Source of the DNA: a bacterium
Lineage (GTDB): Bacteria; Patescibacteriota; Patescibacteriia; Patescibacteriales; UBA12465
Length of the DNA stretch: 59,493 nt
Reading direction: 5' to 3'
NCBI GenBank assembly: GCA_030696105.1
Contig: JAUYNJ010000006.1
Span: 1-59,493, forward strand
In this document: positions 17,954 through 50,508 of the stretch, one piece after another
Layout: each line of letters begins with the position of its first letter
Position numbering within the stretch: the stretch's first letter is position 1
Program-made: the position numbers and the translations under genes
Notes under the pieces: model-generated
The model's database searches: none
Told to the model about the DNA's origin: nothing
Seen by the model: only the letters and a program-made list of their open reading frames with translations

Positions 17954-17982
17954 ATTATAATAAATTTTTGAAATATTCACAA
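17954..17982 (-). promoter_or_regulatory. Candidate ftsA-ftsZ promoter
   Basis: Minus strand reads TTGTGA (17982..17977, overlapping the pilD stop), N17, TATAAT (17959..17954). Confidence 0.45.
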
Positions 17983-18786
17983 CTGGAACCAAGCCCAATA
18001 AGCATCAAGAAGCTTGTTTCCCCAGATTAAGGCGAAGAGTCCGCCAAGAGCCAGAAAAACTCCGAGCGGCAATTTGGAAGACCAGGCCTTCTTTCCGGCA
18101 ATTAAAAGCCCAAGAGCGATAATAGTGCCAATAATATAGGAAGCAAATATCGCTAAGATAAGTAGATTAACCTGGACAAACATCGCTCCTAGCATCAGTC
18201 CAAGCCAAATATCACCCTCACCTATTCCCCTACCTCTTGTCGCTAAGAATTGTAGGCCAAAAAAGCTTGCGCCAATCGCCATCGTTATTAGCGGTAAATA
18301 CCAGCTCACGCCCAAACTGTAGTTTATCGCTAAAAATACGATAGTGGCCGCGAAAGCAAAGACGGTTGATACCAAGTAATAGCGCAAATCAAAAACAAAA
18401 ACGACAGTTAAAACCCAAACGGCCAGCCAATCAAATATTAATGATAGCCAGAAGCGAGGATTTTCGAAATAATAACTAATTTCTGTTAAAGAGACGTAGC
18501 TATAGTCTAGATTCTTAAACCAAAATACAAGAAATAATGTTGCAACAGCAAATTCCACAAGCGGGTACTGCCAAGATATTTTTTTCCGACACTGTCGACA
18601 CCTGCCCCCTAGAATTATAAAACTAAGCAAAGGAATATTATCATACCAAGCAATTTGTTTCTTACATAAAGGACAGTAAGAACGACCAAGCACCCGTTCT
18701 TGTTTGTATAGGCGCCAAATTAGACAGTTTGCAAAACTACCAAGTGACAGGCCTAGTAACAAGACAATAATTATGATTAATATCAT
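17977..18786 (-). CDS. pilD: Prepilin (type IV leader) peptidase, A24 family
   Basis: N-terminal CPLC...CRQC domain. Asp motifs in FDLRYYLV and GEGDIWLG. Polytopic membrane protein. I prefer the ATG at 18786 (MILIIIIV...), because the track's upstream extension overlaps the preceding gene. Confidence 0.8.
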   Translation of the reverse strand: MILIIIIVLLLGLSLGSFANCLIWRLYKQERVLGRSYCPLCKKQIAWYDNIPLLSFIILGGRCRQCRKKISWQYPLVEFAVATLFLVFWFKNLDYSYVSLTEISYYFENPRFWLSLIFDWLAVWVLTVVFVFDLRYYLVSTVFAFAATIVFLAINYSLGVSWYLPLITMAIGASFFGLQFLATRGRGIGEGDIWLGLMLGAMFVQVNLLILAIFASYIIGTIIALGLLIAGKKAWSSKLPLGVFLALGGLFALIWGNKLLDAYWAWFQL

Positions 18787-18791
18787 AGCGT

Positions 18792-24111: not shown

Positions 24112-24693
24112 ATGCCTTTAATCCCCACAGTCATCGAAAAAGAAGGTCAGGTCGAGAGGGCCTATGATATCTACTCCCGCCTTCTCAAAGATAGGATTAT
24201 CTTTCTTGGCGAACCTATTGATGACCACGTCGCGAATATCGTTATTGCTCAAATGCTATTTCTGGCTGCTGAAGATAAAGAGAAGGACATTAAGTTCTAT
24301 ATTAATTCTCCCGGAGGCTCGGTATCGGCCGGTTTAGCAATTTACGACACCATGCAATATATCAAGGCCCCTATTACAACCATCTGTGTTGGTCTTGCTG
24401 CCTCCATGGCCTCGGTTCTTCTGGCTGCCGGCGCTAAGGGTAAGCGTCTCGCTTTACCAAATAGTGAAATCATGATTCATCAAGTTATGGGTGGCGCCGA
24501 GGGACAAGCTTCAGATATTAAGATTCGAGCTGAACATATACTAAAAATCAAAGATAAGATGAACCGCATTCTTGCCTCTCATACCGGTCAAAAAATCGTC
24601 ACTATTGAAAAAGATAGTGACCGCGATCGTTTTATGAGCGCTGACGAAGCTCTTAAATATGGTTTAATCGATAAAATTATTTCAAAAGAATAA
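24112..24693 (+). CDS. clpP: ATP-dependent Clp protease proteolytic subunit
   Basis: [13 protein letters not shown], catalytic Ser in GLAASMAS, His in MIHQ, Asp in DRDRFM. Confidence 0.95.
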
Positions 24694-24718: not shown

Positions 24719-24747
24719 AAAAAAGACTCGCCTCGTGCGAGTCTTTT
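24719..24747. terminator. Bidirectional terminator between clpP (+) and the 328-aa gene (-)
   Basis: AAAAAGACTCGC-CTCGT-GCGAGTCTTTT. Confidence 0.6.
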
Positions 24748-24764
24748 GTATATTCCTTATTAAC

Positions 24765-25751
24765 TTATTTTTTCATTAAAGTCACTGCCATCATTCTGAA
24801 GATTTCCAGATAGGGGGCAGTTTCGCCTGATCTAATATATGATAGCACGTAGATCCGCGTGCCCTCCTCACCGAGAAAATAAGCAATATAACCATCAGCA
24901 CTGAAGATGCCGGGGCCAAAATTGCTATCAATAAAGCGATCTACGGTTAATGAGCCAACACCTGAAAACTGCGTTTTATACCAAGACAGGATATCATCGT
25001 ATCTCATTTCTGCATCTTCATAAGAAATTTGAATGAAAGACTCATCAGGCGCAGAAAATAAAGTTGCACCCGGGCTGACGGTGTTTACTTCCCAAGCATT
25101 TGGATATAAAAGCGCATAAGTTCCGTCAACTGGTGCGTATAAAGCCAGTTTACGGTTTTCAGATAATTTTCCAGGACCCGTTGGGTCGTAACCACTTAAG
25201 ATCTCAGAGAGATCATCGTAGCCGTCGCCATCACTATCAGCGGATTGAGGATTTGTTCCTAAATATAATTCAGCGGCATCACTTAAACCGTCTCCATCAG
25301 CGTCAGCTGGCACCGGCAAGACAATTTCTACTACAGCAGTCTCCGCTACTTCCTCAGAGCTCGTAGCTACCGTCTCAATAACTGGCGTCTCTGGCACAAT
25401 TATATCGACTGGCGTCGCTACCTCAGCGACTATTGGCGAAGCCACTGTCTCCTGGACAACAACTTGATTGCTTCCCTTCATCGCAGGCACAATTAAAAAA
25501 CGATAAGCTAAAAAAAACAGCACGCCAACCACCACAATGCCGGACCCAATTATAATTAGGCCCGTTGATTTAGCTTTGTCATGGTTCTCATGATTTTTAG
25601 AAAAAGTACTTTTATCATTGCCACTGCCATCATAGCTGGTCGCACTAAAGCGAGAAAATGATGGCATGTTTTTTACCGTAAAATCCTTTTCTAATTTCGA
25701 CCACATTTCATCATTAGTTTTTTCTGATTCCTTAGTCTTAATTTTATTCAT
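24765..25751 (-). CDS. Single-pass membrane-anchored protein with thrombospondin type-3-like Ca-binding repeats and a C-terminal globular domain
   Basis: TM segment LIIIGSGIVVVGVLFFLAY, a P/V/T/E-rich linker, then DADGDGLSDAAE...DSDGDGYDDLSE. Confidence 0.7.
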   Translation of the reverse strand: MNKIKTKESEKTNDEMWSKLEKDFTVKNMPSFSRFSATSYDGSGNDKSTFSKNHENHDKAKSTGLIIIGSGIVVVGVLFFLAYRFLIVPAMKGSNQVVVQETVASPIVAEVATPVDIIVPETPVIETVATSSEEVAETAVVEIVLPVPADADGDGLSDAAELYLGTNPQSADSDGDGYDDLSEILSGYDPTGPGKLSENRKLALYAPVDGTYALLYPNAWEVNTVSPGATLFSAPDESFIQISYEDAEMRYDDILSWYKTQFSGVGSLTVDRFIDSNFGPGIFSADGYIAYFLGEEGTRIYVLSYIRSGETAPYLEIFRMMAVTLMKK

Positions 25752-25754
25752 AAT

Positions 25755-25949
25755 CTAAGCTGCTAAATAGTAAAAGCCGGCAAACACCAACATAGCTAGA
25801 AATACAACAGGCACAACCCAGTGCCAAGCTTTGCCGCGCAAAGGCATGTTCAATTTTGGCATCACGTGAATACGCAAATATAACCTGACGCCTTCTGGCC
25901 CGGTCTCTTTTTTTCGATATCCTTTTTTAGTTTCGTTGCTCATAGGCAA
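25755..25949 (-). CDS. Small membrane protein (uncertain)
   Basis: 64-aa ORF with one C-terminal TM, tightly packed between neighbours (gaps of 3 and 9 nt). Confidence 0.4.
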   Translation of the reverse strand: MPMSNETKKGYRKKETGPEGVRLYLRIHVMPKLNMPLRGKAWHWVVPVVFLAMLVFAGFYYLAA

Positions 25950-25958
25950 ATAGACAGA

Positions 25959-26624
25959 TTACTGTAGCTTACCTTCACCTTTAGGATTATAGCCATTCTT
26001 CACTTCGTCGCCATCGCTGAAGCCATCGCCATCAGTATCAGGATTTAAAGGGTCTGTACCGTAGATATATACCTCTTCATAATCTGAGAGGCCATCAAAA
26101 TCAGAGTCAATTAAATTTGGATCTGTGCCCAAAGCCATTTCCTGTGCGTCAGTGAGACTATCGCCATCAGAATCAACAGGGGCGACTACGACTGGAGCTT
26201 CAACCACTGGTGGAACGATGGGATTAATTACAGCAGGATCCTCAGCTATTGGTGAAACAACATTATTATCACCCGTTACCACATTTGTGTTAGTTGAGGT
26301 CGAGACTGGCGGAACGACGACGCCACTATTTACCGTTAAGGCATCATCTGCGCTTGGTTTGATGAACTTGGAATAAATAAGATAGGCAGCAGCTCCGATA
26401 ATTACCGCGCCCAACAAGATAATTAAAATTGATTTAATTTTTGGTCCGTGTTTGCCACCGTCTGCATCCCCTTCTCCATCATACTGTTGAGCGGCTAAGC
26501 CGGCAGGACTGGCTTCTATGTTTGCATCTCCTTGCGACACACGAGGAGTCGTGGCGTCGGTCTCAGCGAAGATGTCGTCGACCGCGGATTTAGTGGCGGG
26601 TTGATTGTTGAGTTCGTTAAACAT
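25959..26624 (-). CDS. Single-pass membrane-anchored protein with three thrombospondin type-3-like Ca-binding repeats
   Basis: TM segment [19 protein letters not shown], a P/V-rich linker, then [18 protein letters not shown] and DTDGDGFSD at the C-terminus. Confidence 0.7.
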
Positions 26625-26704
26625 AATATTCTAAATTATTTTTAGCTGATAATATTTTTATTATAGATGATTTTGCTTAAAAATGCATCCTAAGAACTAA
26701 TTTT

Positions 26705-27001
26705 CTATTTGAGCGTCTCAATATCAGTAATAATATCTGTCTCATCGCGAATAATTTTGTACGATATTACCTCGCCGTTCTCGTCACGACCGAGAACTTG
26801 TACGCGCGTTGCTTCCTGCAAACCCAGCTCAATTTTTTCCTGATTTTCCATAAAGTGAATATCCTGTGGTCGCATTTCAGGAGTTATATCGGGCAAGGTC
26901 ACTCCGTGTTCTTTTTGCAAAAAAGAATAGATAGCCCAGGTTGACGCGAGCATAAGTAACACAATGATGACTGGAATCAATATTTTTTTTGGTAATTGCA
27001 T
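26705..27001 (-). CDS. Small N-terminally anchored protein
   Basis: 98-aa ORF with one N-terminal TM or signal anchor. Confidence 0.5.
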   Translation of the reverse strand: MQLPKKILIPVIIVLLMLASTWAIYSFLQKEHGVTLPDITPEMRPQDIHFMENQEKIELGLQEATRVQVLGRDENGEVISYKIIRDETDIITDIETLK

Positions 27002-27016
27002 ATTTTCTAAATTTTA

Positions 27017-29932
27017 TTAGTTTGCTTCACCACCCTCTGGATCTTCTTCGACAGCACAGTATACATAACTACTTGCACACATACTGTTCGCGCAACAAAC
27101 TTGGTTTACACCACATAAATGACTACCGATGTTGCAGCATTGTTGTGTTGCAGGATTATAACAAGTTGTTCCACAAAGCAGGTGGCCATCAATTGGACAA
27201 GGACCAGTATTTTCTACTTCACACGCACCATGGGGCCAGACCTCATTATTCCAAACATAGCCAGCCGTACAAGAGCAACTTATAGCCTCACAGTCATACT
27301 GTCCGTCGCAGTTATATAATCCAATCGAGCAACTGGCAATGCAGTTACCGCTAAGCGTTGAGCATTTATTTGAATTTATCCCGCAATTCTCAGGGTTTGT
27401 ACGGTAATAGCACTGGTCGCCGCAACGATATTGTGAGGGGCCACAGGCAGCGCATTCAGTATTACTTTCACAGCCGGGAACACTTGCGTCACAATCATAC
27501 CAACCTGCATTACAAACACACTGCCCAGCAATTGGTGATTGATTTGCGGCATCGCATTGGCAATCAGCTAAGCATTCACCGGTCTCCCATGGTATCGTCG
27601 ATCCTGAAGCTGTAACTAGTTTAACCTGACAAATACCATCGCCGCAATAGCCACCACCATCCTCGGGACCACCGCCGAGATATCCGCAAAATACTTTATT
27701 ACTAGGAACCGGAAAAGGCACAACAGTACCAACTTTAGTGTTGCAGCCGTATTGAAGATTTGAGTGACTGTTGCCAATTTTACCTCTATTTAAAATGATA
27801 CCACTTGTACCGTCACAGTCTTCGTGACCGTCATTATAATATCCACCGCGCCCCTCAAGGTTTGGCTGCTGCCTAACGCCGTCACCACAATAACTATTAA
27901 TACCAAGAGTAAATTCACGAATTGACTCAGCGCCAAACTCGTTCACCGCTTTTATTTTTATCGGGAAAGAGGGGTTGATAACCGTTGGCCTGCCCGTTAG
28001 AGCATAAAACAAACTCTGAGTAGCAGCGGTTGCTCGCTGCGATAAACCAAGGAAAGTGAGAATGCGATTAATAATCGACTTTGCCTCCAGTGGTGGCTCG
28101 CCTACTTGTGTGCTGCCACTAAGGCTAATGCCGGCAGGCAAAGGCCCAATAGCGCTGTAAGTGATAGTGTGATCGCCTTGCGTTCTCCAGCCTAAACCGC
28201 AGTAATATTGATAGCCGGCACGCACAGATTTTGCGCAGTTGAAATCCAACAAAGGATGCTCGGCTTTAACTAAAATATTAATCTGTCTAGTGGAAGCGTT
28301 ATTATAACTATCTCTTCCAGTGATAACGTAAACGAAGTTAGTGTCTCTTGAATACTGAGGTATCGTCAATAGGCTGTAATTTAAGGTGTAGTAAACAGTA
28401 TCCCCTACTCGGTTTGAGGTCTCCCCTGAAAAAGTAGCGTTTGCTGGGGACAGCAAGTCAAATGGGCCTGAACTGTACTGTGCTTTGGTAATTGTATAGG
28501 AAACAGGCTGATGTTTATCTGTAATACTAAAGCGTATAGAAAGAGGCAGGACGGTGCTTGGGTAATATTGAATATCATCAGAATGAATCAGCGGCGCATT
28601 GTTTCTAATAACAATCGGGGTCACAGTTGCCAAATTACCACCTCGACCATCAGTCACGGTTAACGACATATTGTAAGTACCAGGAGCGCCCGCAGATTGC
28701 GCATATATTTTTTTCTGATTTGGGTTAGTGGTGTCCATGAGAATTGGTGGAGCACCAGCGACATTATTATTTTTCCAACCAGACCAGGTTGTACCGCCCG
28801 TATTCAATGACCACTGCAAAGGGTTACCTTCCGGATCTAACACCCTAATTGAGCCATTGAATGCTTGGTCAGTTTCGCCCTGAAGGTTTGTAGAGATAAG
28901 AACCGGAGCACTATTATTACTGGAACCGATGTAAGCAGCTCCACTTAACACACAACCGAAATCTTCTAACTGCCCCTCGGCGGTGTTGTAACCTAGAGCC
29001 TTTGTTTCCATAGAAGCACAGAGACTGAAGTTAGAACCGGTGGCGTCACCGCTATAGACGTAAGCGTAACTTCCAGCCGGCAGCTCAAGAGTACTGTCAT
29101 TTGGTTGAGGGTCACCAAAAGTTCTTGTCTCCTCATTCCAGCAAGTTATCGGATCAAAGCCTGCGCAAGCACCGAGACTGTTTATTGGGTCAACTAATTT
29201 TTGTGCTGCACCTAATTGTGGCAGAAACAAAGATTGCCAACTTGGCCAAACAGAAATTGAATTCAAGGGAATATAGGTACCAGCACCAAGCACTGGATAT
29301 TTATTGTTCTTGTTTTTAAAATTTGCTAGGGCAAAACGAATTTCACCAAGGGAACCGAGGCGTCTGACATCGCGAGCTACTTTTGAACGCAGGTTGTCAC
29401 AGAATATTCCCTGACCACAATCCTCATCGGTGTAGCAAACATCGTTACCGGCGACGCAGTCCCCAGAAGAGGCGCAGCGTATGGTTGAAATTGCACACTG
29501 GCCAGCAGCGCTTAAATTACTATTAAACTTCCAATGTTTAACAATCTGTCCTAAAACATCAACTGTTTTAAAATCGGGATTTTGATTATATGAAATCAAG
29601 TAGATATTAGTATAAATCGTTCCATTATTAGTATCTACATTGGCGGCATTGACATAAACGGTACGCCCATCACGAACGGCGTCGTAACCATCGACAACAA
29701 GGGATTGAGGTGAGCCAGAAAATCCTTGATTACTATACCAGCGCGACGCACTGTAATGATTTGGGTTGGGTAAAATACGAACCGCAATGACATCATTGTC
29801 CTCACCTATTGCTCCAGCTCCAAATTGTGAGACATCAGGAGCTCCCTCGGCCGCTTTACCGGCAAGTGGCCACAATAATATAAGCAGGGCAGCAAGCCCG
29901 GCTAACTTAAAAAAGTAGCGATAGTTCTTCAT
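27017..29932 (-). CDS. Secreted 971-aa cysteine-rich protein with an internal pilin-head-like motif and a Cys-dense C-terminal tail
   Basis: Sec-type signal peptide. SKVARDVRRLGSLGEIRFALANFKNKNNKYP...LVDPIN resembles the conserved start of type IV pilin/GspG globular domains. YCGDG...E(D/C)CD repeats. My hand count is about 48 Cys, 30 of them in the last roughly 210 aa. Confidence 0.75.
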   Translation of the reverse strand: MKNYRYFFKLAGLAALLILLWPLAGKAAEGAPDVSQFGAGAIGEDNDVIAVRILPNPNHYSASRWYSNQGFSGSPQSLVVDGYDAVRDGRTVYVNAANVDTNNGTIYTNIYLISYNQNPDFKTVDVLGQIVKHWKFNSNLSAAGQCAISTIRCASSGDCVAGNDVCYTDEDCGQGIFCDNLRSKVARDVRRLGSLGEIRFALANFKNKNNKYPVLGAGTYIPLNSISVWPSWQSLFLPQLGAAQKLVDPINSLGACAGFDPITCWNEETRTFGDPQPNDSTLELPAGSYAYVYSGDATGSNFSLCASMETKALGYNTAEGQLEDFGCVLSGAAYIGSSNNSAPVLISTNLQGETDQAFNGSIRVLDPEGNPLQWSLNTGGTTWSGWKNNNVAGAPPILMDTTNPNQKKIYAQSAGAPGTYNMSLTVTDGRGGNLATVTPIVIRNNAPLIHSDDIQYYPSTVLPLSIRFSITDKHQPVSYTITKAQYSSGPFDLLSPANATFSGETSNRVGDTVYYTLNYSLLTIPQYSRDTNFVYVITGRDSYNNASTRQINILVKAEHPLLDFNCAKSVRAGYQYYCGLGWRTQGDHTITYSAIGPLPAGISLSGSTQVGEPPLEAKSIINRILTFLGLSQRATAATQSLFYALTGRPTVINPSFPIKIKAVNEFGAESIREFTLGINSYCGDGVRQQPNLEGRGGYYNDGHEDCDGTSGIILNRGKIGNSHSNLQYGCNTKVGTVVPFPVPSNKVFCGYLGGGPEDGGGYCGDGICQVKLVTASGSTIPWETGECLADCQCDAANQSPIAGQCVCNAGWYDCDASVPGCESNTECAACGPSQYRCGDQCYYRTNPENCGINSNKCSTLSGNCIASCSIGLYNCDGQYDCEAISCSCTAGYVWNNEVWPHGACEVENTGPCPIDGHLLCGTTCYNPATQQCCNIGSHLCGVNQVCCANSMCASSYVYCAVEEDPEGGEAN

Positions 29933-29955
29933 AAATTAAAGTTTTAACTTTTATA

Positions 29956-32900
29956 TTACTGCGCAGCAACTAGATTAATTACTATTTCCGTCGATTTATT
30001 ACTTTCATTATTTGATGCATCGAGCGCCGATAAACTGAAATAATGATTACCCGCGCTAAAGCCAACGGAGCTAATTTCAATGAAAGAGGCACCATTTTCA
30101 GAGTCAAAGGATTCGCCATATTGACCGCTGGAAACACCGTGATACAGGCGGTGAAACAAGGCGCCGGTCTGTAGGCCGTGCCAAGTAAACCTGATACGTT
30201 GACCACTTTGAATTGTCCCTACTAAGCCTTGCGGAGTCGCGGGTGCAATTTGATCAGTCACAGTCGCCTCTTTCTCGTTAGACAATACGCTTTCAACCTG
30301 GGCAGCGGAAATGGCTGACACCTTAAAACGGTGAGTCACATCAGTCTGTAAATTCTTTAATAGATAGCGACAAGTATATTGCTGACCTGAAGTCGGAGTT
30401 GTGGGAGTGCAAACGGTTCCCTGACCAGCAGCATAGATATCAGTCGGCTTCACATCAAGGAACGACATGTTTCCAGAATTAATGGGCGCGTAATATAACC
30501 GGAATCTGCCCATCTGCGCAGGATTAGCGTTATAAATTAAATTAGAAGAGCTGTTCCATTCGAGTCTAACGGTTTCACCATCCTGCTCGTCAACAGCGGC
30601 TGTAATAGCCCCCGCCTGGGGCGTCGACTCCTTGAAGAAATATGATTCCTTAAGCACGTCCCAAATACAGAAACCGTCACCGACGCCATCGAAATTATTA
30701 TCAGGCCCACAGGTGGCGCCAACATTAGAACAAGCGCTTCTGCCCTCACTGCAAATTAAAGCGCTGCCAGTGCCGCGAATGACTGCGGGGTTAATCATGG
30801 CTGGCAAATCATCGCTAAAGCCATCTTTGCCCGCATCGCGGCAATAATAGAATTTATAGTTATAGGGCTGACAGTTACCAATAGCACCGGCGCAAGTATC
30901 CACCCAAGGAGACCAACTCTGAGTTAGCGGGTTAACCGGCGGCCAAGGATTTTTACATAAGAAGATATATAGTGGAGTTTCACCGACTAAACCGTCACCA
31001 TCGTCATAAGCATTACAACAGTTATTGATACAATTTGGTTCCGCACAAACACAGGATGATGAAGGGTTACACTGCGGCTCCAAGAAGCGATCCATATTGA
31101 TAGTCGAGCGCAGCATGGTTGAATCATCCGTAACTCCACTAGTCATCTCGACGAAGGCTCGATTATTTTCTAGGCCGGTGATTGAACGAATCGATGCGAT
31201 TGAACTTTTTACAACATTCCATTGCCAATCCCAGAAATATCCCTGAGTCGGATAAAGAATCTGACCATTAGAACTAAAGGCGCGCACCGCAAATACCTTA
31301 TCGCGATCACTCTTAGTATCAAAACTATTACTCTGTGGATCCGTGTCATTTTCATTTAAATCATTGGCGTCATTTTGGAATAAATAAGAGGAAGGTTCTG
31401 TCTGAGTATAATCAACCATACAAATACCGCCATTTGCACCCTGTGCTGGTAATGTGGCGAACGAAGCGATATAGGAATTACTGAACGCTAGGTTGTTAAA
31501 GGTGATGCCACTACCTTCAACATAAACGTTGCCGTTAAGGTCTAAGTAGCCACGACCATTCATGCCTAACTGCCAAGAACTCATGACGCCAGAGTTACTG
31601 TCAAGAACCTGATCTCCCTTAACAACGACATAATAATTAGAACCAGCGGCTAATAACTTTTGGGGGGTGAAAGTAGCCGTGGTGCGGTTACCATTATTAG
31701 TGGCTGAAACTGTTCCCGGAACTGAACAATAGAGCTTTGAGGCATCAGGGATGCCAGCCAAAGCCGAGCCTGATTTTAACCCAGTTGTGCTTAAAATTGT
31801 TCTAGTTACTTGAGCTAAGCGCGCTGCAAGTCGTTCAAACCAATTGCGTTGCGGTGTTACAAAACCGTCTAGAGCTGCCACGAAAGTGCCTGCCGGGCAG
31901 ATGCCAACACCATATTCATGCTCCTCTAACAAAATAATATTACTCATTAAACTTACTGGATCCATCAACTGATCAAAAGGAATGCTAATCGACGCATTAC
32001 GACAAACGCCGCTCGTGCCGTGAGCTGGGTTCAAAGCGCTTTCAATAACAGACGGACGCGCCCTGCAACAAGTGCCAGAATCGCAGCCTACATTCTCAAG
32101 GTCGCCACAATCAAGGTCCGCGCTACAACCGCAACAGAGTCCGCGGTTTTCACCTGAACAAGGAGCTTGGTCAGGCTTACAGACAAGATTAAGACCACCA
32201 CTATTTAAACTACTACAGGAAGCTGCATTGCCGACCTCACAACAACAGGCGCCACAATCACCACCTGGTAAACCGGCGCCGCCGCCTTCAGCTAAACAAG
32301 CATAGGGCGAGCCGCAGAAGGAGGTATTACAAGTCGGATCAAAAGTGCTAACACTTAGACAGTCAGTTCCAGGCAAGGGCTTAATATCAGCATAAGGGCA
32401 GTCCCTTACGCACTCACTTTTGCTCTTATAATCTCCTGTTCTGAGCTTCACGTCAGTTTCACACTGCTTATCAAGTGGAGGCGCCTTACAATCATAGTAG
32501 GCACAGTAGCCGTCATCGGTCTTATCAGTGCCACCAACACATTCATTTTGTTCAAAATCATAACAACATTTAGCCGAAGCGCCGCAGGCCGCTTGGTCGC
32601 CATTATATTGGCTGCAAGCGGTACCACCAGGATTAGCTTCACAACCACTAACACACTTAAAGATACTGGTAAACTCGCCGTACATTGTCGGCGTAGTTGA
32701 TGCGCACTGAGCTGGGTCACCAGGAGGTGTGGAGCTTGGACTTGCACAATCATAGAAAGCGCAATATCCAAATTCTGGGGCGTTTTCATCAGTTGTAATT
32801 AACTGACCGCTTCCACCAGTACAAACATCATCAGATGGGTCAGCGGTTCCTTTAGAATTAAGGCAGCAAGTCGCACTGTGAACTAAACAATCATCAGCCG

Positions 32901-35805
32901 ACAAGCGACTACAATCACCACAGTTACCGTTAACGGTTGTAGTGTCACAATATTTCCCGGAGAACTTATCACAATTACAAGCGGCGTCAGAAGCAGCCGT
33001 GTCAACGACACCGCCAACTTCCACGGTACAACCAGTACACTCGCCTAAGTTGGCCTGTCCTGATCCGCAAGAGTCGCCACAGGTTAGACCAGCACAGCAA
33101 TCACGAGCATCTTGGCCAATTACGCAGCAGCAATCACATCGCGCCGCTTCGGTTGAAATACATTTATTGTTAGTACAGGTGGCTAACCCCGTGCAAAGCT
33201 CAGTGCTGACACAAACGCCTTCCGCATTGCCACTATCTTGCTTACAGCTGAAACCGGACTCACAAAGATTACACGTCGAAGTATTAGCGCTAACACTATC
33301 AACACAACGATTATTATCTAACCTCACCCAGCCACTTGGACAAGAGGTCGAGGTTGTAATTTGCCAGTGTGCTTGGCCTCCAAACTGAGGGAAGATACTG
33401 CAAGAACGGTTGGCACTAAATTCTTCGTCTCCCAATTGGAAGGTATAAAGTGAGTTCAGCGAGCAGGTGCTGTTACTTAGAATACAAGCATCAAAAGTAG
33501 AGCTATATGTGCAGTCGTTACCGATACAGGCTGGAACGCTGGCGCAACTAGAATCGCAAGGACCGAGGTCGCGAGGTGCTCCAGCGAAGGGTGAACAGAC
33601 ACCAGGAGAATTTGGACAGAAGGCATTAATCTGACAGGCGCCTAAAGCTTTGGCCATGCCGTCACAACTGTCATATTCTTCTTCACCCGTGCCCGTACCA
33701 AATCCTGTGTCAAAGCCCCATTCAAAAACCGAACGTGGAATATTGATATAACAACTAGCTAAAGTCGGAGCGCATCTTCCCTGTTTGTATGTACCGGCAG
33801 GACAACAAATTTCACCAGAACAGTCAGCATCAATACTACAGGTACCAATTTCAAAATTTACATCATTACCCCAAGTACCGTTTTTAACGACCCTAACCGG
33901 ACCACTAACTGAAGCCGGAGGGGCGTTGGGATTTAAGCGGTCAGCGCCGCGGTCAGAGGTGATAATTCCGCTGACGCCCTTATCACGACTAAATACTGTC
34001 AGGCCGCTTGTTCCTAAATCCCCAAAATATTCACCCCAGAGTGTTACTGGTGTTCCAATGGGACCGCGCGGAGGGGAGATTTTACAAATACTACTTTTTA
34101 AAGCTTCATTGCTATTAGCAGTAAAGACATTCGGATTGGCGTTTTGCGAAGTAACCAGAACCCCGCTTAAATCGACTTTAATCTCATAATTTCCATCGCC
34201 CAACTCCGAAGGAACTTTTACAATAATCTGTTTATCTTTCCAGATAGATGACGCGCACGCTTCTGGGAAAATGTAACTTGCCTCCTGATCACCGAAAAAA
34301 ACTTTTGACTCCCCTTTAGCACCGCCGAAACCGCCGCCGTGTATAGTAACGTATTGCCCGGCGCGACCAGTTGTTGGCTCAAAATATGAAATATAGGGGC
34401 CGGCGTTTGGCTCCTCTTGTTTTACAAATTTTACATAATTACTTTTTTGCGCAATACCATTAACAGAGCTGACCACAAAACTACTCATGCCACCTTTTTG
34501 TAAATTAGGAATAGTTGAAGTGCCGACCAAGCCGGCCGGATTTGCAAACACAGAATCTAAGCCGCGCACATTACGAGCGTAATCACCAAAGTATGCTTGC
34601 CCGCCACTATATAAGTTAATGCCAAAATAATTTACCTTATCACTTAAGCGCCCGGATTCTGGAGTTAATAAACATAAACCAGGGCGAACGAGGTCGTTAG
34701 CAATAAAATCTGGAAGAACGGGGCCAATATCATCATTTGTTGTATCACTCTGACTATCAGCAGCCACTACAGTGAGTGGCCCGGAGACTGAAGATGGCGG
34801 TATAGCCACCACAATCTGATTATTCGTCCAGGAATCAATACAATCAGGATTAACCAATGACGGAGAAATGCCAGGTAGACCACCAGCAAATAATACTTGA
34901 CTGCTCGTCGGATCATAGACACCAAAATTCGTGCCCATGATGGTAATCAAGTTGCCGTCTGCGCCATTAGGTGTCACGACGTCGCATTGCTGACTACAAT
35001 CACTATCACTTAAGCAGGCCCTATTCGCGTCTTCTTCACAAAAGCCACCGAGAGGACTGACAGCCGTGATGACGGGTTGCCCCTCGCAGACACACGAAGT
35101 CTCCCCGCAACTTAAGTATTCGCCGCATAAATTATTATCCGCCTCACAAGTCGGTGTTAAGTCATCGCCATCACAAGAATCGCCGAGTTGTCCTTTGGGT
35201 AAACAGGCGCAGGAATTAGTGTCGCAGTAACTATCGGAGGCACAGATTTGATCAACTGCCTGGCAGCCAGGAAGCAAGGTGTTGCCATCGCAGCTAACCG
35301 GACCGCCGCCGGAATTACAATCAGAGCCGAGGCATGGCCCCCAGTAACCGTCAGTGCAAGTCATGCCACCACCACAGCCACAGGCAAGTGTTTGGCCGGT
35401 AGTACAGGAGCTGCTGCCCCCGCTATTATTTGTCGCGCCTAAGAGACTGTTTAAAATAAAGGTTGCAATTCCCCATGAAGCTAGAATAATCAACAAACCA
35501 ACCACACCATTACGCAAGATCTTTTTTGCTTGATCAATTTTATCCTCTTGACCACCGGCCGTCATCCAAACAAAACCGCCCCAGAGAATCAGACCAAGCG
35601 CCAATAGACCTAGCACCGACATGGCGATATTTATAATCCGAGCTACGACTGTACGAGGATCATCCTGTGTCAGGCTAATGTTGTTACCAATTTCATCCAT
35701 GCCGACATCAACTTGTGCTATAGCGACACGGAAAAAGGCTAAGCTACCGAGAATTAGTATGCTTAAAGCCAGGTAACGCAAAATATTGGTTTTTGATCTT
35801 AACAC
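29956..35805 (-). CDS. Giant 1949-aa surface protein: signal peptide, VirB2/TrbC-like two-helix module, Cys-rich modules, IPT/TIG-like domains and C-terminal FN3-like domains
   Basis: GTG start. Residues 32-125 are paralogous to the 881-aa protein. Three IPT/TIG-like segments (PVITAVSP..ITIMGTNFG; GPYISYFEP..VTIHGGGFG; KISPP..VTLWGEYFG). About 124 Cys by hand count. FN3-like C-terminus. Confidence 0.8.
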   Translation of the reverse strand: MLRSKTNILRYLALSILILGSLAFFRVAIAQVDVGMDEIGNNISLTQDDPRTVVARIINIAMSVLGLLALGLILWGGFVWMTAGGQEDKIDQAKKILRNGVVGLLIILASWGIATFILNSLLGATNNSGGSSSCTTGQTLACGCGGGMTCTDGYWGPCLGSDCNSGGGPVSCDGNTLLPGCQAVDQICASDSYCDTNSCACLPKGQLGDSCDGDDLTPTCEADNNLCGEYLSCGETSCVCEGQPVITAVSPLGGFCEEDANRACLSDSDCSQQCDVVTPNGADGNLITIMGTNFGVYDPTSSQVLFAGGLPGISPSLVNPDCIDSWTNNQIVVAIPPSSVSGPLTVVAADSQSDTTNDDIGPVLPDFIANDLVRPGLCLLTPESGRLSDKVNYFGINLYSGGQAYFGDYARNVRGLDSVFANPAGLVGTSTIPNLQKGGMSSFVVSSVNGIAQKSNYVKFVKQEEPNAGPYISYFEPTTGRAGQYVTIHGGGFGGAKGESKVFFGDQEASYIFPEACASSIWKDKQIIVKVPSELGDGNYEIKVDLSGVLVTSQNANPNVFTANSNEALKSSICKISPPRGPIGTPVTLWGEYFGDLGTSGLTVFSRDKGVSGIITSDRGADRLNPNAPPASVSGPVRVVKNGTWGNDVNFEIGTCSIDADCSGEICCPAGTYKQGRCAPTLASCYINIPRSVFEWGFDTGFGTGTGEEEYDSCDGMAKALGACQINAFCPNSPGVCSPFAGAPRDLGPCDSSCASVPACIGNDCTYSSTFDACILSNSTCSLNSLYTFQLGDEEFSANRSCSIFPQFGGQAHWQITTSTSCPSGWVRLDNNRCVDSVSANTSTCNLCESGFSCKQDSGNAEGVCVSTELCTGLATCTNNKCISTEAARCDCCCVIGQDARDCCAGLTCGDSCGSGQANLGECTGCTVEVGGVVDTAASDAACNCDKFSGKYCDTTTVNGNCGDCSRLSADDCLVHSATCCLNSKGTADPSDDVCTGGSGQLITTDENAPEFGYCAFYDCASPSSTPPGDPAQCASTTPTMYGEFTSIFKCVSGCEANPGGTACSQYNGDQAACGASAKCCYDFEQNECVGGTDKTDDGYCAYYDCKAPPLDKQCETDVKLRTGDYKSKSECVRDCPYADIKPLPGTDCLSVSTFDPTCNTSFCGSPYACLAEGGGAGLPGGDCGACCCEVGNAASCSSLNSGGLNLVCKPDQAPCSGENRGLCCGCSADLDCGDLENVGCDSGTCCRARPSVIESALNPAHGTSGVCRNASISIPFDQLMDPVSLMSNIILLEEHEYGVGICPAGTFVAALDGFVTPQRNWFERLAARLAQVTRTILSTTGLKSGSALAGIPDASKLYCSVPGTVSATNNGNRTTATFTPQKLLAAGSNYYVVVKGDQVLDSNSGVMSSWQLGMNGRGYLDLNGNVYVEGSGITFNNLAFSNSYIASFATLPAQGANGGICMVDYTQTEPSSYLFQNDANDLNENDTDPQSNSFDTKSDRDKVFAVRAFSSNGQILYPTQGYFWDWQWNVVKSSIASIRSITGLENNRAFVEMTSGVTDDSTMLRSTINMDRFLEPQCNPSSSCVCAEPNCINNCCNAYDDGDGLVGETPLYIFLCKNPWPPVNPLTQSWSPWVDTCAGAIGNCQPYNYKFYYCRDAGKDGFSDDLPAMINPAVIRGTGSALICSEGRSACSNVGATCGPDNNFDGVGDGFCIWDVLKESYFFKESTPQAGAITAAVDEQDGETVRLEWNSSSNLIYNANPAQMGRFRLYYAPINSGNMSFLDVKPTDIYAAGQGTVCTPTTPTSGQQYTCRYLLKNLQTDVTHRFKVSAISAAQVESVLSNEKEATVTDQIAPATPQGLVGTIQSGQRIRFTWHGLQTGALFHRLYHGVSSGQYGESFDSENGASFIEISSVGFSAGNHYFSLSALDASNNESNKSTEIVINLVAAQ

Positions 35806-35872
35806 AGTATTGAAACGGTTATAAGCAAAAGCAATGCTTTACGCCGATAAGCCGGAAATAATATAATATCCT

Positions 35873-38518
35873 TTACTCACAATTACCATTGTCGCCTAAC
35901 ATAGCGCTCGGAACACCATAACAACATGAAGGGTTTTCAGCGTCTGCCTCACAATTTGGTCCAGCACTTGGTTTATAGCAATTTTGGTAAATATCTTTAA
36001 CTCCCGAGCCGACCTGCGCATTATAGGTCACAGACGACTTCATCGGGGTGTGCGATAAGTAAACGTAAGTTAAGTCAGGCTCACCGTCTAGCGGCGCCAC
36101 ATCCCTATTATCAGCTGTCACCCAATAGCCCAATGGGTTAGGAGTAGAACTAAAAATATTAAGCAAGCGATGCTCAATATTTGTCTGACCGCTCTTAACC
36201 ATGGTGCTGCCGGTGCGTAAACTACTATTCATCATTAAGGTGTTGAAAGCAATTTCGATTGGAGCGTCTACAGGCACGTTGCCAGCACTGTTCACAGGAT
36301 TAATAGAAGTAATGCGCGGTGGCTCCGACATGATGGTGTCATTAATATAAAATGACCAACGATACTTATCTTTCAATTCAAAATTTGAACTATCATTTTC
36401 GTTGTAAAACGCAATCGGTCCATCCGCATAAACATCGCGGTTACCGTCGAGAGAATTTAAAGCAGCGTCGACAACGCCATCAAGAGGACTGAGAGCTAAA
36501 GGATAATTTTTGCCGTTCGGGTCCTGACAAATATTTTGACCGAGACTATTCGCCTGACAAAGGGTAAACGGCTGATAGCGAGTGCAATCAAAATTTGTTT
36601 CACAGGTTCGAAGATTGGCGGCGACTAATTGCACGGCTAAGTGACTATTGGCCGGCAAACAATATATTGTTTCGCCACACCCATTCATCCCACATTCCTT
36701 GTCCGAAATAAACTCAACTGTTTTATAGGCATTACTAACCATAAACTTTCCGGCAAGATAATCGCCCCGGCAGACGCCGGCATTACAATCATAAGAAGCG
36801 CAACCACTATTACTTGTGCAGACAGCGCCGTTCCCGGTACTTGACTCAGCGTTAACAATGCGGATGCTATTACTAACTTCATCAGCAGAACCGGACAACT
36901 GTATGGGGTTAATACCTTCATTAAAATTAATTTGAATGACTGAATTCATCGGCCTATCCTTCTTGTCGCGAGACTCCTCAATACGTACTAAGTCTTGCCC
37001 ACCATTAAAAGGGGTTAAAGCTAACGCTGCCGCGTTGTTGGTGTTAAGAATAATATTATTACCAGCGCTACCAGCAATTTTCACCGTCAGCGCTACTCTT
37101 GAAGCAACTTTATCCACATTAATATCAGGATGTCCACTCAACTTACTATATATTTCAGTCGCAACATCTTCGGTATTACAGGAGGGACCATTTACTAAAA
37201 TATTATTACCAGAACTATTAGATGCGAAGGTGTAGACCAGAGTGCCAACACGAAGATTGCTCGCTAAAACTTCCGGCGCGACACTAACTACCCAGGAGTT
37301 TCCAGCCTGATGATCGTCCGCAAGTAAAGTGAAGAAGCCACCAAAGACCGCTTCATTTCCCTGCCAAGCAGTCACACCCAACAAAGTAGAGCCCGTAAAT
37401 AACTGCGCTTGAGTATTATCACTAGTAACGCTTACTACATAGTTATTATAAGATGCATGGTAATCAGAAGCGATGACAGCGGAAGCGTCATTTAAACCCG
37501 CTTGTCTCGTCACTGAAATAATCTCAGCTGCTTGGTATATGTCGGGGCAAGCCTGTACCTGTATGGCCGCACTTGCGTTTACAGCTGCTTGGCTCTGCCC
37601 AAATATATCTTTCTCGTTATCGGGTAAAGGGAAAATTCCGCCTCTTACGATCTGGGGTGGGGTTAAATCAATTGTATTTGTTACCCTAAAACTCCATTGT
37701 AAATAATCACTGAAACAAGTCTTAAATATTGAATTCCCGTCTTCTTTCTTAATTCCACTCGTAAGTCGAACGCTATAGTCTACATCGCCCTCTGCTTGCC
37801 CGAGAAAATCAGTCGGCATAATTACAAAATCTTGACTATCAGCAGAAGCTTGTATCGTTGCGGCTGTAACGTTTTGGACGCCGTCACCCATATCATTTCT
37901 AAAAATCTTGATGTTGCTAGGGTTGATAAGATTGCAGCTTGTGCTGCAGGCGCAGCTACTTCCAGCCGCATCCTGACAAACGGTATCGAGCATAATCGCC
38001 TCTTTGAAGCTAACCATGATAGAAGTATTTCTCGCCACCCCTCTTTGTCCATCTTCCGGGTAAACGCGCTCAACTGTACAGGCACCAATGGCGCCGGCTC
38101 CGGTTAAGAGCGGTTGGTTCGGTGTGTTAATGCCAAAAAATCCACCATTCGTCGCCCCCAAGAGACGGTTCAAAACGAAGGTGGCTATACCCCAGGCTGA
38201 GAGGATAATAATTAAACCGATTACGGCGTTTCTTAAAGTCTTCTTAGCTTGATCAATTTTTTCTTCACTGCCGCCGCTTGTCATCCAAATAAAGCCAGCG
38301 TAAATAATCAACCCGACCGCAATCACCCCAAGAAATAGGAGGGCGATATTAATGATGCGAGCCACGATGATACGTGGATCAGTGGAGGCCAGCTGAATGC
38401 TATTTTCGATTGGCTGTAATCCGATGTCAACATTTTGCGCTAACGCAAAATCAGCTAGGCCAAACCCCGCGACAAGGAGCGCGAGAAATAATAAAAAAGA
38501 GAATAATCTGCAGCGCAT
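35873..38518 (-). CDS. 881-aa surface protein: signal peptide, VirB2/TrbC-like two-helix module and Ig-like (SbsA/Big-type) domains
   Basis: Residues 29-123 align with the 1949-aa protein (about 62 of 95 identical by eye). Ig-like domain starts VERVYPEDGQRGVARNTSIMVSF and PPRITSINPVNSAGNVPVDAPIEIAF. About 25 Cys. Confidence 0.8.
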   Translation of the reverse strand: MRCRLFSFLLFLALLVAGFGLADFALAQNVDIGLQPIENSIQLASTDPRIIVARIINIALLFLGVIAVGLIIYAGFIWMTSGGSEEKIDQAKKTLRNAVIGLIIILSAWGIATFVLNRLLGATNGGFFGINTPNQPLLTGAGAIGACTVERVYPEDGQRGVARNTSIMVSFKEAIMLDTVCQDAAGSSCACSTSCNLINPSNIKIFRNDMGDGVQNVTAATIQASADSQDFVIMPTDFLGQAEGDVDYSVRLTSGIKKEDGNSIFKTCFSDYLQWSFRVTNTIDLTPPQIVRGGIFPLPDNEKDIFGQSQAAVNASAAIQVQACPDIYQAAEIISVTRQAGLNDASAVIASDYHASYNNYVVSVTSDNTQAQLFTGSTLLGVTAWQGNEAVFGGFFTLLADDHQAGNSWVVSVAPEVLASNLRVGTLVYTFASNSSGNNILVNGPSCNTEDVATEIYSKLSGHPDINVDKVASRVALTVKIAGSAGNNIILNTNNAAALALTPFNGGQDLVRIEESRDKKDRPMNSVIQINFNEGINPIQLSGSADEVSNSIRIVNAESSTGNGAVCTSNSGCASYDCNAGVCRGDYLAGKFMVSNAYKTVEFISDKECGMNGCGETIYCLPANSHLAVQLVAANLRTCETNFDCTRYQPFTLCQANSLGQNICQDPNGKNYPLALSPLDGVVDAALNSLDGNRDVYADGPIAFYNENDSSNFELKDKYRWSFYINDTIMSEPPRITSINPVNSAGNVPVDAPIEIAFNTLMMNSSLRTGSTMVKSGQTNIEHRLLNIFSSTPNPLGYWVTADNRDVAPLDGEPDLTYVYLSHTPMKSSVTYNAQVGSGVKDIYQNCYKPSAGPNCEADAENPSCCYGVPSAMLGDNGNCE

Positions 38519-38575: not shown

Positions 38576-38584
38576 ATTATAACA
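38576..38584 (-). promoter_or_regulatory. Extended -10 element (TGTTATAAT on the minus strand) for the surface cluster
   Basis: Mirror-image TGTTATAAT lies 58 nt upstream of the 881-aa gene ATG, with TTCAAG 16 nt upstream. Confidence 0.4.
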
Positions 38585-38609
38585 TAAATGCCTAATTCTT
38601 GAAAACGAC

Positions 38610-40070
38610 ATGACCATAGATCGCATTATCAACAAGTTCCTAGAGAAGCATCCGGACGAAGATCCGACGATGCTTCGTTTAGCGTACGATTTTGCGGCCG
38701 AAGCACATGGCGGGCAACTGCGTAAAACCGGTGAACCTTACATTCAGCACCCCCTTCATACCGCCTATATGCTGGCCGAAATTAATGCCGACCTACCAAC
38801 CATTGTCACCGGCCTAATTCACGACGTCCCCGAGGACACAGACTATACTTTTGAAGATGTTGAAAAGAATTTTGGAGCCGAGGTTGCAACTCTAGTCGCC
38901 GGTATCACAAAGTTGGGGAAAATTAAGTACCGCGGCATCGAACGTTACCGCGAAAATCTGAAAAAAATGTTTTTAGCGATGTCTACTGACATCCGCGTCA
39001 TTTTTGTTAAATTCTGCGACCGCTTGCATAATCTACGCACACTAGAAGGACTACCTCCTTCAAAGCAAAGAAGAATCGCTCAAGAAACCCTTGAAATATA
39101 TGCGCCAATTGCGGGCATGCTCGGTATCTGGCGTCTCAAATGGCAGATGGAGGATATCTGTTTCAAGTATCTTTACCCGCAAAAGTTTCAGGAACTTGAA
39201 CAAGAATACGAGGTTGAAAAAAAAGCTGAACGTAACCAGTACTTCCAAAAGATTAAAAGTGATCTTCTGCCGCGCTTAAAAGACGCTAACATTAAGTACG
39301 ACCTTGAAGTCCGCTTTAAACATCTTTACAGCATCTACTTAAAAATGCAGCGAAAGGATCGTAAATTCGACGAAATCTACGATGTGTTTGCCTTAAGGGT
39401 CGTAGTGCCAACAATTGATGATTGTTATAAAGTACTAGGCATTGTTCATACTCTCTGGCGGCCCAAGCCAAACCGCTTCAAAGACTATATCGCCGTCCCT
39501 AAGCCTAATGGCTATCGCTCATTGCATACAACCATCTACGGCCCCGAAAATAAAGCAGTTGAATTTCAAATTCGTACTCAAGAAATGCACGACGAAGCGA
39601 TGTATGGTCTCGCCGCTCACTGGTATTATAAAAGCAAAAGTGAAAAAGGCATGCAGCCGATGTGGGTTAAAGAAATTGTGGAAATTCAAAAAGAGATTTC
39701 TGACACCAGTGAATTAATTCGCAATATTAAACTCGACATCTTTAATGACCGCATTTTTGTATTCTCTCCGAAGGGAGATGCCTTCGAATTACCAGAATAC
39801 TCAACCCCTATCGACCTCGCCTATGCTATTCATACAAATATCGGCAACCAGGCAACTGGCGCCATTATTAACGACCGTCTAGGAAAGCTTGACCAGGAAT
39901 TAAAAAATGGAGACCTCGTTGAGATAATCACCGATAAATCCCGACAGCACCCTAATCGCGATTGGCTTAAGTTTGTTAAAACCAAGAGGGCCCGTGACCG
40001 TATTAAACAGTTTGCTAAAAAAGGACCGCTCGAAAACATTAAGCGCTTTATTCCAGGAATGAACAGATAG
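38610..40070 (+). CDS. rel: Short bifunctional RelA/SpoT homologue (HD hydrolase, synthetase and TGS domains only)
   Basis: HD domain (HPLH...HDVPEDT), synthetase motifs YRSLHTTI and EFQIRT, and a TGS-like C-terminus. Only 486 aa, so the usual C-terminal regulatory half is absent. Confidence 0.85.
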   Translation: MTIDRIINKFLEKHPDEDPTMLRLAYDFAAEAHGGQLRKTGEPYIQHPLHTAYMLAEINADLPTIVTGLIHDVPEDTDYTFEDVEKNFGAEVATLVAGITKLGKIKYRGIERYRENLKKMFLAMSTDIRVIFVKFCDRLHNLRTLEGLPPSKQRRIAQETLEIYAPIAGMLGIWRLKWQMEDICFKYLYPQKFQELEQEYEVEKKAERNQYFQKIKSDLLPRLKDANIKYDLEVRFKHLYSIYLKMQRKDRKFDEIYDVFALRVVVPTIDDCYKVLGIVHTLWRPKPNRFKDYIAVPKPNGYRSLHTTIYGPENKAVEFQIRTQEMHDEAMYGLAAHWYYKSKSEKGMQPMWVKEIVEIQKEISDTSELIRNIKLDIFNDRIFVFSPKGDAFELPEYSTPIDLAYAIHTNIGNQATGAIINDRLGKLDQELKNGDLVEIITDKSRQHPNRDWLKFVKTKRARDRIKQFAKKGPLENIKRFIPGMNR

Positions 40071-50209: not shown

Positions 50210-50508
50210 TGCCTAAAACACCGCCATACCAAATTAAGCCCAAAAAGCGCTATATCCGCGACGCCGAAAGTGTTAAGTTTCACGTCGATAATAATGATTA
50301 CTTCGGAACCGCGGCGACTTTACTCGGACTTATTCGAGAAACGCTGTCATCGGAAATAAAAAAAGCGCCAGATAAGGACTGGGCGCCGGTTGAAATTGCC
50401 TTTATAAATCTAGAACAGGACTTATTAATCCTGCAGGGGCATTACCATATCAAAGCAAACAAGAAGAAGGTCCAGGCCGAACCAAGGGGCAAGCTTAAGA
50501 CCCAGTGA
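50209..50508 (+). CDS. Hypothetical 99-aa protein
   Basis: ATG overlaps the radC stop (TAATG). No recognisable motif. The 3' end overlaps the convergent Wzy_C gene by 67 nt. Confidence 0.4.
   Translation: MPKTPPYQIKPKKRYIRDAESVKFHVDNNDYFGTAATLLGLIRETLSSEIKKAPDKDWAPVEIAFINLEQDLLILQGHYHIKANKKKVQAEPRGKLKTQ

Follow-up and report, generated by a model that had tools for sequence, protein, structure and literature searches.

The window analyzed here, i.e., the whole 59,493-nt stretch of contig JAUYNJ010000006.1 (assembly GCA_030696105.1), is part of the chromosome of a Candidatus (Ca.) Falkowbacteria bacterium (Patescibacteria, class ABY1). Its minus strand harbors seven consecutive open reading frames (ORFs), spanning positions 24765–38518 (13,754 nt, 23% of the window), and their gene structure, domain content, topology features, and co-conservation in related genomes are direct observations. 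On these grounds we lean, without great confidence, towards the interpretation that the seven genes make up one conserved operon, whose products assemble on the outside of the cell membrane into a multi-protein structure for contact with, or adhesion to, other cells or surfaces, in which the base is conserved and the tip varies.

The seven ORFs, named hereinafter after the length of their products in amino acids (aa), follow each other from g881 to g328 with intergenic gaps of 67, 23, 15, 80, 9, and 3 nt; this matches exactly the ORFs, sizes, and gap range (3–80 nt) reported in an earlier note on this DNA, which had also estimated, correctly, that the cluster takes up almost a quarter of the window. 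The same note had placed the start of the cluster in a promoter region shared with the divergent upstream gene rel (38610–40070, plus strand) and its end at a strong bidirectional terminator shared with the convergent downstream gene clpP (24112–24693, plus strand). Both ends agree with the sequence. The 91-nt divergent spacer between rel and g881 holds a promoter-like site (38576–38605, minus strand; TTTTCA-18 nt-TGnTATAAT, extended −10), which was read directly from the sequence and is a consensus match only, with 10 of 12 consensus positions and a TG ahead of the −10 hexamer. Between g328 and clpP lies the hairpin of a predicted bidirectional intrinsic terminator (24721–24747, both strands), consisting of an 11-bp stem (AAAAGACUCGC-ACGAG-GCGAGUCUUUU), with a U-run after it on the cluster strand, an A-run flanking it on one side, and a T-run on the opposite one; the hairpin has a folding energy of −15.5 kcal/mol (z = −5.5), and none of 200 shuffled sequences folded equally well. 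Inside the cluster, the terminator-like matches retrieved by a consensus scan were weak and not above the expectation from shuffled sequences. The common strand, the short and conserved gaps, the promoter-like site, and the terminal hairpin suggest that the seven genes may be co-transcribed as a single operon.

The large ORFs each have hundreds of full-length homologs, and thus the genes are real rather than chance ORFs. As regards a horizontal transfer, the GC content of the cluster (0.44–0.49) is near that of the rest of the window. Moreover, its position between rel and clpP is fixed across dozens of species, which disfavors a mobile element; a prophage or a defense island was also considered, and it was rejected since PHROGs and PADLOC did not retrieve any phage or defense signature from the cluster. 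No non-coding RNA was found in it, the three tRNAs of the window all being located elsewhere.

All seven products possess a signal peptide or a hydrophobic anchor, and no enzyme domain was retrieved from any of them with Pfam and NCBIfam; hydrophobicity and domain searches thus bear out the earlier description of the cluster as a set of exported or anchored proteins lacking enzyme signatures. Prepilin-type G[FMY][TS]L[IVL]E, LPx[TSA]G, and lipobox motifs are absent from all seven proteins, and Pfam gave no match in them to a type IV pilin domain or, at E <= 0.1, to SLH or any other recognized wall-binding domain.

The first two genes of the cluster, g881 (35873–38518, minus strand) and g1949 (29956–35805, minus strand, GTG start), code for candidate modular VirB2-type pilins. 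Two proteins of the cluster had been thought to carry a VirB2/TrbC-like helix pair; in both of them, the Pfam family T4SS_pilin (PF18895) was retrieved over its cut-off of 26.6 bits (39.4 bits in g881 and 41.4 bits in g1949), and the NCBIfam model NF045849 (pilin-like) also matches the hairpin, under the model's own cut-off. The g881 protein consists of a signal peptide (residues 1–27), the hairpin (residues 48–122, nt 38153–38377), and a beta-rich ectodomain (~760 aa) that includes immunoglobulin (Ig)-like Big_5 domains (PF13205, 63.7 bits, Pfam). Its hydrophobic segments (residues 1–28, 47–83, and 94–121) have equivalents in g1949, and the loop of the hairpin includes the conserved residues A91 and K92. 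The g1949 protein, which was searched against Pfam both as a whole and in 250-aa segments, shows a signal peptide, the hairpin (residues 48–124, nt 35434–35664), Cys-rich segments, three TIG domains, a Big_5 domain, and C-terminal fn3-like domains, with 124 Cys in total. The pilin module represents a small share of the two proteins, from residue 48 to about 122 of 881 and 1949 aa. Their N-terminal 125 aa are 52% identical, and the remainder is unrelated.

The AlphaFold2 models of g881 and g971 were built on alignments of 35–36 sequences and are partly of low confidence. The g881 model, with a mean predicted local distance difference test (pLDDT) value of 68.5, shows two helices (residues 48–79 and 85–122) and a beta domain (residues 305–510) with a pLDDT of about 90. 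Searched as a whole chain with Foldseek, it retrieved Ig-like, CopC, Ldt-Ig, cadherin, and FlgL-domain matches only; the weak likeness of residues 305–510 to the D-domain of FlgK/FlgL was put down to a beta fold in common, and homology was rejected. The whole-chain Foldseek searches of g881 and g971 did not return any enzyme or toxin fold, the matches being generic Ig-like ones. A PDB sequence search with g881 did not give any match, and the sole one for g1949 was the TIG domain of cyclodextrin glycosyltransferases.

The g881 family includes 256 homologs. Nearly all of the 120 listed are 863–953 aa long and carry PF18895, and three also carry TrbC/VirB2 (PF04956); some are named “pilin” or “Ig-like domain-containing protein” by NCBI. 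The median length of the g1949 orthologs is 1940 aa, and for both proteins the conservation is even along the chain and the family length is constant. The best-conserved part of g881 is the hairpin (68%), whereas the plain transmembrane (TM) segments of g221 and g328 reach only 29–32%; this argues that the constraint on the hairpin exceeds the needs of a passive anchor.

The third gene, g971 (27017–29932, minus strand), codes for a protein with a signal peptide and no anchor. Four regions can be recognized in its product: an N-terminal domain (residues 47–140, nt 29513–29794), a helix-plus-sheet region (residues 181–340), a tandem Ig-like rod (residues 340–680, nt 27893–28915), and a variable Cys-rich tail (residues ~780–971). 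Pfam did not retrieve anything over cut-off, a PDB sequence search did not give any match, and the exact g971 sequence had no entry in public assemblies. The rod is predicted with confidence as tandem Ig-like domains (pLDDT 85–92), and its Foldseek matches include cadherin/protocadherin ectodomains, titin Ig, the PrgB stalk (8beg), and the S-layer protein SbsB. The earlier description of g971 as a secreted protein with a Cys-dense tail stands, as 35 of its 48 Cys fall within the last 270 residues; the pilin-head-like motif attributed to it was not confirmed, since it has no hidden Markov model (HMM) support and only the helix-plus-sheet region, of low confidence (pLDDT 50–60), could correspond to it.

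Nowhere in the cluster is conservation higher than in residues 47–140 of g971, where the invariant columns of the protein are concentrated. The identity between homologs and the window copy falls from 76% and 62% in residues 51–150 to 13–22%, with many gaps, in residues 800–971. In the homologs, the tail is exchanged for other modules (PF09603, PF13229 beta-helix, PF13620/PF13715, PF05345, PF04706, and others), and at the syntenic position the encoded proteins are 693–1679 aa long. In g971, the base is thus conserved and the tip variable. At least 371 homologs, almost all unnamed, were found in 90%-identity clusters; furthermore, probing 1.84 billion representative proteins with residues 40–345 retrieved 1362 clusters at 50% identity, 537 of them at E <= 1e-30. 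The N-terminal domain, for which there is no Pfam model, is nearly always N-terminal, on proteins of 280–2100 aa. Since about 1360 clusters share it, nearly always at the N-terminus of proteins of varied length, the domain is, judging from sequence comparison, a large unannotated “carrier” domain family.

The four remaining genes code for smaller membrane proteins. The g98 product (26705–27001, minus strand) has an N-terminal membrane anchor (hydrophobic segment at residues 1–29) and a small external domain; a positional homolog of 80–160 aa is present in most loci, with a conserved C-terminal motif (QVL.R...G...VYKII..D.DIV). The g221 product (25959–26624, minus strand) is a single-pass (N-in) protein with a cytoplasmic N-terminus, a TM segment (residues 60–88), a Pro/Val-rich stalk, and TSP3 repeats, whose DxDxDGxxDxxE motifs begin at residues 173 and 196. 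The g328 product (24765–25751, minus strand) is a paralog of g221, with 32% identity across the TM segment, the stalk, and the TSP3 repeats; at its C-terminus, about 130 aa form an additional domain, which did not match any Pfam family. As had been proposed for two proteins on Pro/Val-rich stalks, both carry Ca-binding repeats: TSP3_bac (PF18884) was retrieved over the Pfam cut-off of 25 bits in g221 (73.9 bits, three repeats) and in g328 (31.9 bits), the binding of Ca being predicted.

Between g221 and g328, g64 (25755–25949, minus strand, TTG start) codes for a basic microprotein, in which an h-H-x-M-P motif lies in the basic cytoplasmic N-terminus and a TM helix at the C-terminus. In most loci, BLAST fails to retrieve the g64-type ORF of about 65 aa though its position is kept; 46 loci have a positional homolog of 50–73 aa with LxLH[TV]MP[QK] and a TM helix. 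A related cytoplasmic motif, IVHNMP, is found in the g328 orthologs (TVKNMP in the window copy), and the cytoplasmic N-terminal motif of g221 is invariant in the consensus of 64 orthologs. The h-H-x-M-P-type motifs of g64 and g328 and the N-terminal motif of g221 do not occur elsewhere in the window and did not match any known family.

The distribution of the cluster was checked in one genome per GTDB species, and the best 80 loci were examined together with 10-kb flanks. The nearest relative of the window is Ca. Falkowbacteria HGW-Falkowbacteria-2, class ABY1 (PMC12102498 Table S1), in keeping with the earlier guess at a small-genome, partner-dependent organism. A relative of g971 is encoded in at least 195 GTDB species representatives, and the recurring order (rel, g881, g1949, g971, a g98-like gene, g221, an ORF of about 65 aa, g328, clpP, secD, and secF) is nearly invariant. 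Conservation of the gene order in relatives, a test set beforehand, was confirmed: the five larger genes are complete and in the same order in 50 of the 51 loci spanning g881 to clpP, with an identity of 33–79%. The median identity to the window is 49% for g881, 44% for g1949, 40% for g971, 39% for g221, and 34% for g328, and that of the housekeeping flanks is 74% for rel, 86% for clpP, and 60% for secD. The median gaps in the relatives are 25, 18, 24, 66, 11, and 3 nt.

Insertions within the cluster were found in two loci only (L007 and L052); in the second, the inserted gene is of the asparaginyl/aspartyl-tRNA synthetase type and the upstream genes are unrelated. Extra genes between g328 and clpP, or past clpP, are present in L020, L025, L030, L031, L032, L041, L054, L069, and L077. 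A solitary g971-like gene lies next to clpB in L074, and in L022 a g971-like gene is directly followed by a TSP3-stalk gene in another genomic context; stand-alone 124-aa pilins of the same family as the hairpin also exist in the Falkowbacteria lineage (L022). A fully syntenic cluster occurs in L006, L010, L024, L049, and other loci from bins labelled Bacillota, Gammaproteobacteria, Balneolaceae, or Saccharimonadales; the taxonomic labels are implausible, and these are probably mislabelled bins or contaminant contigs.

According to the model that we propose, all seven products would be exported or inserted via the Sec pathway. In g881 and g1949, the signal peptide would be removed and the VirB2-type hairpin retained in the membrane, with the ectodomains facing outward; the hairpins would engage in specific packing, among themselves or with partners, instead of acting as passive anchors. 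The unanchored g971 would be secreted, and its N-terminal domain would dock on the complex or on the wall, from which the Ig-like rod would project, ending in the lineage-specific Cys-rich tip as the likely ligand-binding end. The extended Pro/Val stalks and the Ca-binding TSP3 repeats of g221 and g328 might brace or cross-link the acidic ectodomains. Moreover, the cytoplasmic motifs of g221 and g328, together with the related one of g64, might tie the structure to a cytoplasmic partner, and the two small membrane proteins would also help in this link.

Several points weigh against this interpretation. The organism is uncultivated, and the model draws on genes, domains, and structure predictions, from which we infer the physical assembly of the products, the contact between any two of them, and the role in contact or adhesion. 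The N-terminal residues of g971, i.e., the candidate docking domain, were left unfolded by AlphaFold2 (pLDDT 25–35), and no Rosetta-stone fusion of this domain to a pilin module was found among the proteins in which the domain is internal. The constant length and the uniform conservation of g881 and g1949 are as compatible with a structural coat as with an adhesin. Lastly, rel, clpP, secDF, Wzy-TPR (TPR, tetratricopeptide repeat), pilD, and ftsA are equally syntenic in the relatives, so that general collinearity may explain part of the gene order, which alone is no proof of a functional unit.

Three other scenarios can be depicted. In the first one, g881 and g1949 are true substrates of a VirB4/TrsD machine encoded elsewhere in the genome and, once their pilin modules are extracted from the membrane, are incorporated into a pilus of the conjugative type, probably at the tip or the base; this pilus would show the ectodomains, and g971 would be an exchangeable adhesin. 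We regard this pilus of a type IV secretion system (T4SS) as possible but unlikely. The PF18895 matches over cut-off, those to PF04956 in some orthologs, the hairpin as the most conserved part of g881, and the stand-alone pilins of the Falkowbacteria lineage (L022) are all consistent with it. VirB4 is also present in the four cluster-carrying genomes that could be checked, out of four (PMC12102498 Table S1); however, most Patescibacteria have VirB4 anyway, and this co-occurrence therefore says little. VirB4, VirB6, VirB3, and TrsD are absent from the window and from the called genes of the related loci L001–L004, and no virB4 was found within 10 kb of a g971 homolog in the related loci examined. 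Such a missing linkage is normal in Falkowbacteria, since PMC12102498 gives “not near VirB4” for the VirB2 genes and the coupling proteins of this group. Furthermore, the epibiotic growth of Saccharibacteria requires an array of VirB2-like pilins and a T4SS (PMC10633639, PMC12857230), and a phylum-wide survey did not find any PrgB-type adhesin in Patescibacteria (PMC12102498). On the other hand, C-terminal loads of 760 and 1825 aa per subunit are hard to fit in the VirB2 helical lattice, and no known conjugative pilus has such fusions.

In a related and speculative proposal, to which we assign a low probability, g881 and g1949 would represent the first case of “modular VirB2-type pilins”; the minimal and dispersed VirB4/TrsD machine of Falkowbacteria would assemble or present them, with g971 as an exchangeable lineage-specific tip, and the whole would represent the host-contact organelle of this CPR (Candidate Phyla Radiation) lineage.

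The only T4SS-relevant gene of the window, located 14 kb from the cluster and with no adjoining virB4, lies at 8376–10349 (minus strand); it codes for a 657-aa TrwB/VirD4-like coupling-protein ATPase (PF10412, PF12696, PF02534, DUF87) with a C-terminal treble-clef zinc finger (PF23477). Unlinked genes for coupling proteins number two per Falkowbacteria genome (PMC12102498 Table S3). In the one genome overlapping that table, the contig begins inside the g1949 ortholog.

In the second scenario, which appears doubtful to us, the products would form a structural envelope coat, that is, an S-layer-like or wall-associated scaffold that every cell of the lineage would need for the integrity or the shape of the envelope, with no binding of a specific partner. 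The cluster is apparently single-copy and, in most loci examined, fixed among genes for the envelope and for division (secDF, Wzy-TPR, pilD, ftsA, and ftsZ), as might be expected of such a coat; the lengths of g881 and g1949 are constant, and their conservation is even. High abundance is the hallmark of S-layer proteins; those of the SLH type carry an N-terminal wall-binding domain, and the conserved N-terminal domain of g971, followed by a more variable remainder, recalls S-layer proteins, one of which (SbsB) is among the Foldseek matches of the Ig rod. However, no SLH or other known wall-binding domain was found with Pfam, and such a high Cys content, together with a g971 tip in which domains are swapped, suits ligand recognition better than a lattice.

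The third scenario, in which seven unrelated surface-protein genes merely lie together in a collinear segment, takes into account the equal synteny of the neighboring housekeeping genes, the g971-like gene standing alone in L074, and the L052 locus, where the downstream genes are found with the tRNA synthetase-type insertion and unrelated upstream genes, and yet we consider it very improbable, because the genes share one strand with short and conserved gaps, insertions gather at the border of the cluster and not inside it, there are two internal paralog pairs (g881/g1949 and g221/g328), the g64 ORF is kept and shares with g328 a cytoplasmic motif present nowhere else in the window, and the g971-like and TSP3 pair recurs elsewhere (L022).

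Coming back to the contact structure that we favor, a published description of this cluster was not found. The closest papers (PMC12102498, PMC10633639, PMC12857230) treat the small VirB2-like pilins of Patescibacteria, and text searches of PMC12102498 did not reveal any discussion of giant pilin fusions. The earlier note had not recognized the combination of genes as a described system; this still holds, as HMM and structure searches gave generic surface modules only and no described joint system.

Small VirB2-like pilins (PF18895) are widespread in Patescibacteria, often as tandem arrays of 2–11 genes, and are essential in Ca. Southlakia epibionticum (PMC12102498, PMC10633639, PMC12857230); under the criteria of PMC12102498, g881 and g1949 would count as a two-gene VirB2 array. 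The proteins of the cluster share with known VirB2/TrbC pilins a signal peptide, two hydrophobic helices, a short basic loop, and an HMM score over cut-off, as well as the tandem arrangement and the phylum, in whose class ABY1 such genes are often unlinked to virB4. They differ from them in size, as the known members are ~100–130 aa long, whereas in g881 and g1949 Ig-like, TIG, fn3, and Cys-rich parts add 760 and 1825 residues, and in belonging to a fixed seven-gene set without a T4SS assembly gene nearby.

In Streptococcus sanguinis, the modular type IV pilins PilB and PilC also combine a pilin carrier with a bulky grafted module, for which a display in adhesion has been proposed, and pilins of this kind are common in the CPR, including Falkowbacteria (PMC8179133). 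The similarity, i.e., a bulky C-terminal module on a pilin module, concerns the design and not the family: theirs is a class III signal peptide processed by a prepilin peptidase, whereas g881 and g1949 have a signal peptide of the Sec type and a hairpin of the VirB2 type, with no G-F-T-L-x-E motif.

The PrgB-type adhesins of Gram-positive conjugation systems resemble g971 in the tandem Ig-like stalk (8beg is in its Foldseek list) and the cluster in the surface display on a single-membrane cell; the cluster, however, lacks LPXTG, sequence similarity, the polymer-adhesin domain, and a conjugative element. The DxDxDGxxDxxE repeats are also found in Myxococcus CglD and MtsD (NCBIfam NF033765 and NF047639), which are the best NCBIfam matches of g221 (38 and 31.7 bits) and g328 (20.8 and 23.6 bits), far under the cut-offs of 400 and 800; the repeat is all that they have in common, and g221 and g328 differ in being short single-pass proteins with a Pro/Val stalk.

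Lastly, the Pam pilus (bioRxiv 10.64898/2026.03.03.709456) is likewise the product of a surface-appendage operon, specific to the CPR, with Ig-like proteins, anchored accessories, and no dedicated trans-envelope machine, but its pilins use donor-strand exchange and PapD-like chaperones, and it is reported mainly from Saccharimonadia and Microgenomatia. We judged it to be a different system; no chaperone-like or Pam-like component was recognized here in a comparison made by description only.

Patescibacteria (CPR) account for a considerable part of the diversity of bacteria, and those in culture live attached to other microbes. The cluster offers concrete candidates for a contact apparatus and for the specificity towards a host or a substrate. 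In one whole lineage, a VirB2-type module appears to have become what carries or anchors giant Ig-like ectodomains; this suggests modular pilins of the conjugative type as a design principle, alongside the known modular type IV pilins.

The remainder of the window is ordinary chromosome, including ftsA/ftsZ, nrdD/nrdR, secDF, clpP, rel, hisS, lepB, queA, ruvB, an AddA-like helicase-nuclease, gyrA, ndk, ftsEX, and tRNAs. Two membrane proteins with Wzy_C (O-antigen-ligase-like) domains are encoded on the minus strand, the first (18792–21062) being TPR-fused and located by secDF in relatives, and the second at 50442–51689; they may have a surface-polymer role that could matter for holding secreted proteins. 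Between the Wzy_C-TPR gene and ftsA, at 17977–18795 (minus strand), there is a gene for a prepilin peptidase (A24_N_bact and Peptidase_A24), whose position is the same in related genomes; it points to a type IV pilus system with its other parts outside the window.

At the edges of the window, positions 1–2000 have a GC content of 0.32, compared with 0.41–0.49 elsewhere; no ORF of at least 90 aa is present at 829–1726, and a tRNA-Gln lies at 2118–2189. At the other end, a 312-aa ORF (58442–59380, minus strand) with Mutator-family/IS66-like transposase domains, whose profiles are partly covered, is probably the remnant of an insertion sequence.

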